A model generated the notes under the pieces. That model was not told the DNA's origin, ran no database searches, and was given only the letters and a program-made list of their open reading frames with translations. Below, in pieces: positions 23,408 through 29,420 of a DNA stretch of 64,000 bases. Source of the stretch: Eledone cirrhosa (lineage: Eukaryota); NCBI GenBank assembly GCA_964016885.1, contig OZ024744.1, positions 108,190,001 through 108,254,000 of the forward strand, written 5' to 3'. How positions within the stretch are numbered: the stretch's first letter is position 1; each line of letters starts with the position of its first letter. A program made the position numbers and the translations under genes.

Positions 23408-23447
23408 TATATATATATATATATATATATATATATATATATATATA

Positions 23448-23642
23448 AAAGGAAGGAAATGTGGTAAGGAACCAGGTGGACCATAACGCACCAAAGTACT
23501 CAATACTTAGGGTAGTAGAGTGGGTAATAGGAACGAGTAGGACCCCGACGGCTGAGCTCAAGCCGTTTCGATGGCTAATTCTGAGTCCAGAATTAGCCGT
23601 CGAAACGGCTTGAGCTCAGCCGTCGGGGTCCTACTCGTTCCT
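23448..23642. repeat. (TA)n-bounded cassette with about 110-bp near-perfect hairpin built from the 3' half of a hammerhead
   Basis: 23528-23642 palindrome around loop agtc; GAAA-cggc..gccg-TC-ggggtcc in the right arm. Confidence 0.75.
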
Positions 23643-24020
23643 ATATATATATATATATATATATATATATATATATGCGTTTAAATTGTGTGGTTTACCA
23701 CTGGGTAGAATTGGTCAATCTGCAATGTTAATCATGACTCAATATAAGAAAAGCATTCGACGTTATGCAACTCATCCATCTTTGATGTTGAATCATGCTG
23801 GTGGTGCGGTAACGGAGTAAATATATTATAAAGTGAAACTACAGGAGGCCAAAAATGTTGAATTTCCTTAATTAAAAGGGACAGCGAGGCATTATAACAA
23901 CACACCGCTTCGTTCGTCTCTGGCTCAAAAACATAAACACTTTTTTTCTTGTCTGATTTTTCTTTGCTTGTTTCCTTAAAGTTTACCATCATTCCGTTGG
24001 TATACATCTATTACACAATT

Positions 24021-24080
24021 TACACCTGAAGATGTCACCTGGTTCTTACGCAACATGGCCACTGAAATGTACATAGTGTG
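24021..24080 (+). ncRNA. Type I hammerhead ribozyme
   Basis: tacac-CTGAAGA-[imperfect stem II]-GAAA-tgtaca-TA-gtgtg. Confidence 0.65.
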
Positions 24081-24397
24081 TGCAAAAATAAATAATTAAG
24101 GAAATTCAACGTAGTTGGCCTCCTTTAGTTTCACTTTATAATATATATATATATATATATATATATATATATATTTCCAGGTAGCTTACTCTGTTGTTTC
24201 ATTTGATATTTTAGCTCCTAATTAATTTCTGTTTGTTGAGCCTTTTACGTTGAATGGTTATAAGCTGTCATTTCTAGCGGTTTTTTAATCCATCCAAGCC
24301 ACTACGCACTGTGTGGTGCGCGTATTTTCCTTCTCTCTCCACATGCAAAACGTTAGTTATCTAATGTCCATTTAGAAGTGTGAGACATATCTTCGTT

Positions 24398-24477
24398 ACA
24401 CCTGCCGATGAACCCCGAGTCGATATGATTCTTACACTGTTTATGGTGAAACATTCTCTCTCAGTATGTACAGGTGT
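24398..24477 (+). ncRNA. Type I hammerhead ribozyme, CCGAUGA (U4C) variant
   Basis: acacctg-CCGATGA-acc..ggt-GAAA-cat..atg-TA-caggtgt; 7-bp stem I. Confidence 0.6.
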
Positions 24478-25157: not shown

Positions 25158-25224
25158 TTTTATCTGATGAAAACACAAATATTATTGCATGATGATGTTT
25201 GTTTTTGAAATGCGCATAATAAAA
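25158..25224 (+). ncRNA. Type I hammerhead ribozyme
   Basis: ttttat-CTGATGA-aaac..gttttt-GAAA-tgcgca-TA-ataaaa. Confidence 0.7.
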
Positions 25225-25298
25225 TACATGGAACTCCTTTAACCATCTTTTGATCTTATATTATATATATATATATATATATATATATATATATATAT

Positions 25299-28212
25299 AA
25301 TTAAGTTAAAGATGTACATCCATATATGTATACTGAAATACTAGTATGTATATGAATACACACACGTATACATATGTAGGTGTACCAAGTTTTTTCACTG
25401 GTCACTTTACTGTGAGTGGCCAGCTATTCTGTATGTAAACACACAGACAAACCGGTTTTTAGAGTCATACTGGTTTTTGAGGAAACACCTCTCCTCTATT
25501 CTCCAGAAAGCCAGACAAGGAATATTGAACTAGTTTCGTTGTTGTTACAACTCATCAGCAATATTTACCTATCTTCCGGCCTCTCTAGAGAATCGTAAAA
25601 GCACATATCGTTATATGCTTTTTCTATGAAAATTAGTAGTGGGCAGACTAATTTGCATAGAGTGTGAGTAAGTACCGGTTCAACGGAGACGATAAAAACA
25701 AATAACGAAACGAAATTAAATTTCGTTTCGTTTGTAACTCACTTTTGTATGACTGACGCTTAAACAATTAAGTTAAAGATGTACATCCATCTATGTATAC
25801 TGAAATACTAGTATGTATATGAATACACACACGTATACATATGTAGGTGTACCAAGTTTTTTCACTGGTCACTTTACTGTGAGTGGCCAGCTATTCTGTA
25901 TGTAAACACACAGACAAACCGGTTTTTAGAGTCATACTGGTTTTTGAGGAAACACCTCTCCTCTATTCTCCAGAAAGCCAGACAAGGAATATTGAACTAG
26001 TTTCGTTGTTGTTACAACTCATCAGCAATATTTACCTATCTTCCGGCCTCTCTAGAGAATCGTAAAAGCACATATCGTTATATGCTTTTTCTATGAAAAT
26101 TAGTAGTGGGCAGACTAATTTGCATAGAGTGTGAGTAAGTACCGGTTCAACGGAGACGATAAAAACAAATAACGAAACGAAATTAAATTTCGTTTCGTTT
26201 GTAACTCACTTTTGTATGACTGACGCTTAAACAATTAAGTTAAAGATGTACATCCATATATGTATACTGAAATACTAGTATGTATATGAATACACACACG
26301 TATACATATGTAGGTGTACCAAGTTTTTTCACTGGTCACTTTACTGTGAGTGGCCAGCTATTCTGTATGTAAACACACAGACAAACCGGTTTTTAGAGTC
26401 ATACTGGTTTTTGAGGAAACACCTCTCCTCTATTCTCCAGAAAGCCAGACAAGGAATATTGAACTAGTTTCGTTGTTGTTACAACTCATCAGCAATATTT
26501 ACCTATCTTCCGGCCTCTCTAGAGAATCGTAAAAGCACATATCGTTATATGCTTTTTCTATGAAAATTAGTAGTGGGCAGACTAATTTGCATAGAGTGTG
26601 AGTAAGTACCGGTTCAACGGAGACGATAAAAACAAATAACGAAACGAAATTAAATTTCGTTTCGTTTGTAACTCACTTTTGTATGACTGACGCTTAAACA
26701 ATTAAGTTAAAGATGTACATCCATATATGTATACTGAAATACTAGTATGTATATGAATACACACACGTATACATATGTAGGTGTACCAAGTTTTTTCACT
26801 GGTCACTTTACTGTGAGTGGCCAGCTATTCTGTATGTAAACACACAGACAAACCGGTTTTTAGAGTCATACTGGTTTTTGAGGAAACACCTCTCCTCTAT
26901 TCTCCAGAAAGCCAGACAAGGAATATTGAACTAGTTTCGTTGTTGTTACAACTCATCAGCAATATTTACCTATCTTCCGGCCTCTCTAGAGAATCGTAAA
27001 AGCACATATCGTTATATGCTTTTTCTATGAAAATTAGTAGTGGGCAGACTAATTTGCATAGAGTGTGAGTAAGTACCGGTTCAACGGAGACGATAAAAAC
27101 AAATAACGAAACGAAATTAAATTTCGTTTCGTTTGTAACTCACTTTTGTATGACTGACGCTTAAACAATTAAGTTAAAGATGTACATCCATATATGTATA
27201 CTGAAATACTAGTATGTATATGAATACACACACGTATACATATGTAGGTGTACCAAGTTTTTTCACTGGTCACTTTACTGTGAGTGGCCAGCTATTCTGT
27301 ATGTAAACACACAGACAAACCGGTTTTTAGAGTCATACTGGTTTTTGAGGAAACACCTCTCCTCTATTCTCCAGAAAGCCAGACAAGGAATATTGAACTA
27401 GTTTCGTTGTTGTTACAACTCATCAGCAATATTTACCTATCTTCCGGCCTCTCTAGAGAATCGTAAAAGCACATATCGTTATATGCTTTTTCTATGAAAA
27501 TTAGTAGTGGGCAGACTAATTTGCATAGAGTGTGAGTAAGTACCGGTTCAACGGAGACGATAAAAACAAATAACGAAACGAAATTAAATTTCGTTTCGTT
27601 TGTAACTCACTTTTGTATGACTGACGCTTAAACAATTAAGTTAAAGATGTACATCCATATATGTATACTGAAATACTAGTATGTATATGAATACACACAC
27701 GTATACATATGTAGGTGTACCAAGTTTTTTCACTGGTCACTTTACTGTGAGTGGCCAGCTATTCTGTATGTAAACACACAGACAAACCGGTTTTTAGAGT
27801 CATACTGGTTTTTGAGGAAACACCTCTCCTCTATTCTCCAGAAAGCCAGACAAGGAATATTGAACTAGTTTCGTTGTTGTTACAACTCATCAGCAATATT
27901 TACCTATCTTCCGGCCTCTCTAGAGAATCGTAAAAGCACATATCGTTATATGCTTTTTCTATGAAAATTAGTAGTGGGCAGACTAATTTGCATAGAGTGT
28001 GAGTAAGTACCGGTTCAACGGAGACGATAAAAACAAATAACGAAACGAAATTAAATTTCGTTTCGTTTGTAACTCACTTTTGTATGACTGACGCTTAAAC
28101 AATTAAGTTAAAGATGTACATCCATATATGTATACTGAAATACTAGTATGTATATGAATACACACACGTATACATATGTAGGTGTACCAAGTTTTTTCAC
28201 TGGTCACTTTAC
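25299..28212 (-). mobile_element. 467-bp tandem array (about 6.2 units), each full unit with a hammerhead on the minus strand; retrozyme or PLE pseudo-LTR concatemer
   Basis: Units start at 25299, 25766, 26233, 26700, 27167, 27634, 28101 (partial); near-identical; HHRs at 25521-25565 plus n x 467. Confidence 0.9.
25521..25565 (-). ncRNA. Minimal type I hammerhead ribozyme (also 25988, 26455, 26922, 27389, 27856)
   Basis: aatattg-CTGATGA-gttgt aaca acaac-GAAA-ctag-TT-caatatt; 7-bp stem I, 5-bp stem II, palindromic minimal stem III, GUU site. Confidence 0.88.
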
Positions 28213-29403
28213 CTCAAAAACCAGTATGACTCTAAAAACCGGTTTGTCTGTGTGTTTACATACAGAATAGCTGGCCACTCACAGTAAAGTGAACAGTGAA
28301 AAAACTTGGTACACCTACATATGTATACGTGTGTGTATTCATATACATACTAGTATTTCAGTATACATATATGGATGTACATCTTTAACTTAATTGTTTA
28401 AGCGTCAGTCATACAAAAGTGAGTTACAAACGAAACGAAATTTAATTTCGTTTCGTTATTTGTTTTTATCGTCTCCGTTGAACCGGTACTTACTCACACT
28501 CTATGCAAATTAGTCTGCCCACTACTAATTTTCATAGAAAAAGCATATAACGATATGTGCTTTTACGATTCTCTAGAGAGGCCGGAAGATAGGTAAATAT
28601 TGCTGATGAGTTGTAACAACAACGAAACTAGTTCAATATTCCTTGTCTGGCTTTCTGGAGAATAGAGGAGAGGTGTTTCCTCAAAAACCAGTATGACTCT
28701 AAAAACCGGTTTGTCTGTGTGTTTACATACAGAATAGCTGGCCACTCACAGTAAAGTGACCAGTGAAAAAACTTGGTACACCTACATATGTATACGTGTG
28801 TGTATTCATATACATACTAGTATTTCAGTATACATATATGGATGTACATCTTTAACTTAATTGTTTAAGCGTCAGTCATACAAAAGTGAGTTACAAACGA
28901 AACGAAATTTAATTTCGTTTCGTTATTTGTTTTTATCGTCTCCGTTGAACCGGTACTTACTCACACTCTATGCAAATTAGTCTGCCCACTACTAATTTTC
29001 ATAGAAAAAGCATATAACGATATGTGCTTTTACGATTCTCTAGAGAGGCCGGAAGATAGGTAAATATTGCTGATGAGTTGTAACAACAACGAAACTAGTT
29101 CAATATTCCTTGTCTGGCTTTCTGGAGAATAGAGGAGAGGTGTTTCCTCAAAAACCAGTATGACTCTAAAAACCGGTTTGTCTGTGTGTTTACATACAGA
29201 ATAGCTGGCCACTCACAGTAAAGTGACCAGTGAAAAAACTTGGTACACCTACATATGTATACGTGTGTGTATTCATATACATACTAGTATTTCAGTATAC
29301 ATATATGGATGTACATCTTTAACTTAATTGTTTAAGCGTCAGTCATACAAAAGTGAGTTACAAACGAAACGAAATTTAATTTCGTTTCGTTATTTGTTTT
29401 TAT
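28212..29403 (+). mobile_element. Inverted continuation of the 467-bp array (about 2.5 units)
   Basis: Reverse complement of the left array; junction cactttaC/Cctcaaaa; ends in (TA)n. Confidence 0.9.
28596..28640 (+). ncRNA. Minimal type I hammerhead ribozyme (also 29063-29107)
   Basis: aatattgctgatgagttgtaacaacaacgaaactagttcaatatt read directly on the + strand. Confidence 0.88.
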
Positions 29404-29420
29404 ATATATATATATATATA

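Follow-up and report, generated by a model that had tools for sequence, protein, structure and literature searches.

How do several unrelated sequences, some of them carrying hammerhead ribozyme motifs, come to lie side by side with nothing but TA repeats between them? This question is raised by a 64,000-nt stretch of Eledone cirrhosa DNA (contig OZ024744.1, positions 108,190,001 to 108,254,000; hereafter the window, within which all coordinates are given). Between positions 23408 and 29640 the window contains such a train, which a reading made from the sequence alone had described as five unrelated hammerhead cassettes inserted one after another into a single TA microsatellite. Our analysis indicates that the train very probably arose by independent, serial insertions of the ends of Penelope-like elements (PLEs), and of one retrozyme without long terminal repeats (non-LTR retrozyme), into a surviving (TA)n tract.

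The train consists of seven (TA)n runs with six inserts, A to F, between them and no spacer DNA. The runs lie at 23408-23447 (40 nt), 23642-23676 (35 nt), 24137/41-24174 (34 nt), 24716-24851 (136 nt, with one interruption), 25257/62-25299 (about 40 nt), 29401-29422 (22 nt) and 29613-29640 (28 nt, followed by (TG)n). A Helitron-like element stands to the left, after which inserts A to F directly abut the TA runs. Pairwise alignments among these seven units (21 pairs) gave short matches at most; A versus F scored 23, above all 30 shuffles, not a striking result when 21 pairs are compared. The direct abutment and the lack of longer matches bear out the description as a train of unrelated cassettes split only by (TA)n. 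As to its extent, the five named units were found as described, but the sixth insert (F, 29423-29612) and the Helitron-like element had been overlooked. The longest stop-free stretch in the inserts is 31-91 codons. None of them holds a frame with reverse transcriptase and GIY-YIG endonuclease, and they must therefore be fragments or non-autonomous. Together the seven perfect runs amount to 316 nt, whereas no perfect run anywhere in the window exceeds 121 nt; some regrowth of TA is therefore needed. Ordinary microsatellite slippage accounts for such regrowth and would suffice here; new synthesis may also have taken part.

The independence of the inserts was evaluated by aligning four of 22 listed sequencing runs to positions 22850-24715, which cover the left element and inserts A, B and C. 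Depth is not a copy number, and only the contrast between units was used. In run X1, possibly the source sample, depth was 5.2e5-3.6e6 over A, 1.8e3-1.1e4 over B, 24-2000 over C and 1.6e3-2.8e4 over the left element. The order A >> B > C held in all four runs, and in the run carrying another organism label A was present, B almost nil and C nil. This contrast excludes one fixed composite element for A, B and C. Family A was far commoner than its neighbours in each of the four runs, including the one of another organism label, and may rank among the main short repeat families of the lineage; two exact family A motifs had no matches in metagenome contigs.

Other copies of A also end in TA. The unmatched letters at its 3' end (23527) were TA runs in at least 96 contigs of X1 and in at least three contigs of X4, a run with another organism label, and the same end ran into TA in at least 3,026 reads of X20, although reads from restriction-site-associated DNA (RAD) may come from few loci. 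The pile-ups of the RAD run that end at 23580 and 24020 sit at AATT and presumably mark library cut sites. Among 153 joints, the 15 listed all lie inside A and link varied tail positions to its right arm, as expected from many separate inversion events. Furthermore, a short second copy of A occurs at 48-142 with TA on both sides and different neighbours (32/33 identical to A at the tail end, 23/25 at the right end). The depth contrast, the TA-ending copies and this second copy uphold the proposal of independent inserts in a TA target; with A next to other neighbours and A, B and C at uneven depth, the cassettes do not always occur together as one larger element.

The internal anatomy of the inserts points to PLEs. 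Inserts A, B, E and F share a layout in which two arms run outward into the TA runs and are joined at their truncated 5' ends, one arm being longer by a tail of 82 nt in A, 150 nt in B, 75 nt in E and 95 nt in F. They thus show the insertion anatomy of PLEs, an inverted 5'-truncated copy and a one-sided tail, as set out in Craig et al. 2021 (PMC8557442). Insert A (23448-23641) combines its tail with a 112-nt palindrome whose arms (23530-23583 and 23588-23641) are identical at 53/54 positions. Insert B (23677-24140, + strand) has an inverted arm at 23827-23874 versus 24093-24140 (44/48), and in another copy of B the tail and the arm stand together on one contig. Insert F consists of a 97-nt palindrome at 80% identity and its tail, without a hammerhead core. 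Arm identity ranges from more than 99.9% in E (2 substitutions in 4.1 kb) over 98% in A and 92% in B to 80% in F; assuming that arms are identical at insertion, the inserts therefore differ in age. In the window as a whole, terminal inverted arms were found in nine of the 19 TA-bounded segments of 90-1100 nt and in nine of 190 random segments. Outside the train the count was 6 of 14 (Fisher p 1.2e-4), with segment 39615-40459 scored as a miss, its arm being a simple repeat.

Two other origins were considered for these inserts. The palindrome of A could have been a fold-back primed by a natural hammerhead stem II, but other copies continue differently upstream of 23584; because they diverge there with loose ends, we regard it as an ordinary inversion junction. 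Naiad elements, which target (TA)n in cephalopods, lack canonical hammerheads and would fit F at most. Further palindromes of 250-430 nt at 990-1422, 19820-20067, 34660-34971 and 47963-48270, three of them at or near TA runs, are probably other inverted retroelement insertions.

Inserts C (24175-24715, 541 nt) and D (24852-25257, 406 nt), both on the + strand, are plain fragments with no inverted arm. The distance from the hammerhead to the downstream TA run is 246 nt in C and 44 nt in D. One candidate explanation for D, a monomer running from cleavage to cleavage, was dropped: its first eight letters are those that follow the cleavage site, but the likeness ends there.

Hammerheads were located with our own strict type I descriptor over the whole window, with 20 shuffles as control; a relaxed scan was also made. 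The strict scan found 17 distinct sites, compared with three matches in the 20 shuffles, and ten of the 17 lie within the train (cores at 24405 in C and 25164 in D, and eight in E). Rfam, searched at the gathering score and not below it, gave no matches in the window. D and E have the type I core CUGANGA, GAAA and UH with helices I-III, and C has it with one core change. The hammerhead of C (24398-24477, + strand) has the variant core CCGAUGA and a GUA site at 24470, and that of D (25156-25226, + strand) has an AUA site at 25218. In B, on the + strand, the core CUGAAGA at 24026-24032 is complete, with GAAA at 24064 and an AUA site at 24075. Its stem II has 2 bp and is then irregular, and because of this weak stem both scans missed it. 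The forced hammerhead fold of B is predicted at -1.1 kcal/mol, compared with -9.0 for the free fold, and there is an extra base between positions 9 and 10.1. Each arm of A carries the 3' half of a hammerhead (GAAA, helix III, GUC and one arm of stem I). CUGANGA is absent from both strands of A, which agrees with its earlier label as half a hammerhead, and a core search of F found neither CUGANGA nor GAAA. Hence, of the five cassettes named as hammerhead-bearing, C, D and E hold motifs of descriptor grade, whereas B has the weak stem II and A the 3' half only. Helix III is palindromic in B, D and E, and long and stable in C. All insert 3' ends lie 44-303 nt beyond the cleavage site, from which it follows that cleavage does not set the end of the insertion.

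One hammerhead family recurs at 36135, 46540, 47140, 48066 and 48163, with stem I TATTTTAT and a helix III of TATATA or TATGTA. The stretches concerned are 46465-48270, 55944-56111 and 35980-36143. D has the same stem I, and thus shares it with the hammerhead at 36135, near a relic of the Hydra clade of PLEs. The predicted cleaved RNA of the hammerheads at 46540, 48066 and 48163 would end in (UA)4.

Insert E had been taken for one run of a 467-bp array; it is in fact two inverted arms. The left arm (25300-28212, - strand) holds 6.2 units with six hammerheads and ends 228 nt past the last cleavage site. The right arm (28212-29403, + strand) holds 2.6 units with two hammerheads (28603, 29070) and ends 303 nt past the last cleavage site. 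The arms meet with a 1-nt overlap at 28212. The two hammerheads of the right arm have a GUU site and a palindromic CUAG loop. On its sequence E qualifies as a non-LTR retrozyme, size apart: it is made of tandem non-coding units, has a type I hammerhead in each full unit and a GC content of 35.5% (below 45%). Its 467-nt unit lies outside the monomer range of 170-400 nt, which is descriptive and which we do not hold disqualifying. A circular monomer is predicted to fold at -146.5 kcal/mol (z -9.1 against 100 shuffles), a value that is a prediction only. In Cervera and de la Peña 2020 (PMC7229834) and the preprint by Li et al. 2026 (10.64898/2026.07.22.740005), animal non-LTR retrozymes resemble E in their non-coding tandem repeats with a type I hammerhead per full unit, in such a GC content and in strong self-pairing of the kind predicted for the circle. 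E differs from those described in PMC7229834 by its unit length, its two inverted arms and its TA flanks. The word 'microsatellite' is absent from the accessible text of PMC7229834, and 'flank' is used in that of the preprint for LTR retrozymes only. According to the preprint, retrozymes derive from PLE ends, local amplification is proposed and mobilisation is left open.

Which enzyme could have served the train? Relics of Hydra-clade PLEs lie in the same window: a decayed reverse transcriptase at 36900-38860 (- strand; DKT motif at 38534), which we regard as a candidate for the helper class, an endonuclease fragment at 54041-55024 (- strand; CxCX5C linker at 54715) and a relic at 33760-34280 (CxCX5C linker at 34017). 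All three agree with the marks of the Hydra clade (DKT, CxCX5C; by eye no CCHH in the endonuclease); no RWK motif turned up in the window relic. The endonuclease fragment has 84-nt inverted ends, a tail and TA on both sides, an arrangement like that of A, B and F. The reverse transcriptase has 29 homologues, the best named one from Argonauta hians (44% identity); DKT or DKS occurs in eight of the 29, the CxCX5C linker in eight and DKG in none. By eye it resembles Hydra-1_Obim, and these likenesses would probably point to a cephalopod host; Pfam did not recognise the PLE frames of the window.

According to Craig et al. 2021 (PMC8557442), canonical hammerheads are present in Hydra-clade PLEs, nearly all of which have (TA)n as their insertion site; the supplement lists a (TA)n target for 26 of the 27 Hydra families, including one from Octopus bimaculoides. 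They share with the train the 3' hammerhead, the (TA)n target, the inverted truncated copy and the one-sided tail, and the core of B, CUGAAGAU...UGAA, is present in three listed Hydra hammerheads (PMC8557442). By eye, the core pattern of B fits the Hydra clade, but its helix III does not. The train differs from these PLEs in that its inserts have no reading frame and helix III is palindromic in B, D and E; its tails are also longer (75-150 nt, compared with the 30-40 bp described in PMC8557442). In Cervera and de la Peña 2014 (PMC4209133), PLE hammerheads in general have, like B, D and E, a short palindromic helix III suited to dimer cleavage and, like B, an extra base between positions 9 and 10.1. 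The putative ribozyme of C is unlike them in its long stable helix III and its CCGAUGA core. In their palindromic helix III, B, D and E are nearer this general type, so that other PLE clades may have contributed as well.

These results fit a scheme in which a PLE protein with reverse transcriptase and GIY-YIG endonuclease, supplied in trans, would nick both strands of the TA tract and copy an RNA from its 3' region. An early stop would leave a hammerhead-bearing 3' end, as in C and D. Where both strands primed, two truncated cDNAs with different starting points on the RNA would have joined back to back, as in A, B and F. E could be the same event with a non-LTR retrozyme as the template. TA would be kept on both sides at each insertion, so that targets multiply and different families arrive over time; the Helitron-like element may have used the same tract. 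The TA bias, two-strand nicking and two initiation sites are taken from PMC8557442 and PMC11167929. In PMC11167929, AT-rich DNA is nicked in vitro on both strands by a Poseidon-clade PLE protein, which then extends them; two internal RNA start sites bound the tail, and hammerhead cleavage is dispensable. The priming of both TA strands and the joining of two truncated cDNAs at this locus, as well as the order of the insertion events, the regrowth of the TA runs and the helper of each insert, are what we infer from these precedents and from the anatomy.

Several observations weigh against this scheme. C and D have no inverted copy, although such a copy is optional in PLEs according to PMC8557442. 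The expectation that other copies of the cassettes have TA flanks held for A, but not for a 72% relative of the 3' end of C at 34370-34505, which meets (CA)n before (TA)n; among the rows listed, TA next to further copies was recorded for A alone, with none for B or C. None of the aligned contigs or reads listed bridges a TA run, and therefore the adjacency of the units rests on the assembly. No insert is linked by sequence to a PLE reading frame. By eye, the helix III of B, D and E, being palindromic, is unlike that of most Hydra-clade hammerheads in the supplement of PMC8557442, and the mechanism seen in vitro is that of a Poseidon-clade element. Finally, the association of hammerheads with TA outside the train is weak: three of six loci lie within 250 nt of a TA run (p 0.016, rising to 0.087 if each locus is given two chances).

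A different account of the TA runs is that the inserting elements wrote them, by reiterative synthesis or duplication of the 3' end, and that the new TA attracted the next element. Each TA run of the train has an inferred 3' end on at least one side, and plain splitting of one tract would need regrowth to exceed the window maximum. However, the insert at 40547-40765 has no inverted arm and yet an 87-nt TA run on its 5' side, Helitron-like ends adjoin TA in all four cases listed, and slippage is established knowledge that covers the regrowth. We consider this account unlikely. Only slightly less probable than that is an artefact in which the assembly joined unrelated repeat copies through their TA runs. 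The cutting of the aligned contigs and reads at these runs is what it would produce, but 8.8 near-identical units of 467 bp, together with an inversion and private variants, are kept apart in the assembly, which suggests long reads, and several places in the window show this same anatomy.

It is highly improbable that the whole train, or a large part of it, forms a single composite mobile element or a segmental duplicate. The units are contiguous, and the depth data covered A, B and C but not D, E and F; against this, the depths of A, B and C are two to five orders of magnitude apart, the run of another organism label has A with almost no B and no C, A stands alone at 48-142, and the arm identities spread from 80% to more than 99.9%. 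Passive accumulation, in which untargeted insertions were tolerated in a repeat-rich region, seems just as remote. The whole window is indeed dense in retroelement relics and microsatellites, and (CA)n families dominated repeat finding over its full length, but six inserts without intervening DNA, each ending at TA, the enrichment of terminal arms at TA boundaries and the thousands of reads in which A ends in TA all speak for a targeted process. Independent serial insertion into the TA tract thus remains the reading that we prefer.

For array E, a narrower proposal can be added. E may have been written in one step, by a PLE priming both TA strands on a circular 467-nt retrozyme RNA, with two starts 75 nt apart on the circle and copying for about six and about three rounds. 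This idea is based on both arms being multimeric, on the 2 substitutions in 4.1 kb, on the 1-nt junction and on TA at both ends, and we put it forward tentatively, as a possibility to which we give less than even weight. Much the same picture would result from copying of a linear multimeric transcript or from the DNA folding back later.

The left neighbour (22863-23407, + strand) is multi-copy and diverged, has no hammerhead, and is presumably Helitron-like by its terminal motifs. Helitrons begin with TC, end in CTRR with a hairpin and insert between A and T. The left neighbour shows A|TC, a GC-rich motif and TTAG|T, and its 3' end resembles three CTAG ends. The four Helitron-like 3' ends (19641, 23407, 51453 and 54018) are all directly followed by (TA)n; at 54018 the TA run is followed by the PLE fragment, as in the train. 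The frame before the end at 51453 matched STPRs only in Pfam, with a weak lead to Helitron_like_N (score 0.90, 18% of members).

Elsewhere in the window, a second, loose train at 38860-40830 comprises a Hydra-clade relic, (CT)n(TA)n, a TA run enclosed by a 46-nt inverted pair, one insert bearing hammerheads at 39384 and 39540, and a 219-nt insert with a hammerhead at 40683, all TA-bounded. A short GIY-YIG-like coding relic at 35180-35480 (+ strand), seen by eye, possibly belongs to another PLE clade. Decayed frames of non-LTR retrotransposons lie at 5351-8908, 12449-17757 (Pfam RVT_1 at 13849-14949), 57359-58804 and 59686-62415. A small repeat family at 56160-56249, 57035-57054 and 40297-40361 has an end that adjoins (TA)n at 56250 and 57055.

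Microsatellites are known as repeated, low-cost targets of other elements. Waldo, Kibi, Koshi, Dong, Micron and MuTAnT resemble the train in this respect; they use other enzymes and have no hammerheads, and mixed-family trains are not described in the accessible parts of PMC3812793 and PMC4486113. The word 'ribozyme' is absent from the main text, as far as available, of the Octopus vulgaris repeat annotation (PMC13282606). A literature search, whose coverage left out most subscription papers and Repbase reports, listed no paper whose title deals with several families stacked in a single TA tract.

The train is a direct consequence of the (TA)n bias already published for Penelope-like elements, and the locus is a tidy example of a known Penelope-like habit, not a new system. 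It offers a compact case in which (TA)n-targeting PLEs cause a microsatellite to multiply as a target and gather unrelated families there, a process relevant to repeat annotation and to microsatellite markers in genomes of this kind. Array E is the one lead worth keeping, since a single event of reverse transcription may be preserved in its two inverted arms of multimers. If so, E would be a direct genomic trace of an animal retrozyme reverse-transcribed as a rolling circle, in contrast to the model in which a monomer inserts and unequal crossing-over follows, and would offer a test of how animal retrozymes move, a question listed as unresolved in 10.64898/2026.07.22.740005.

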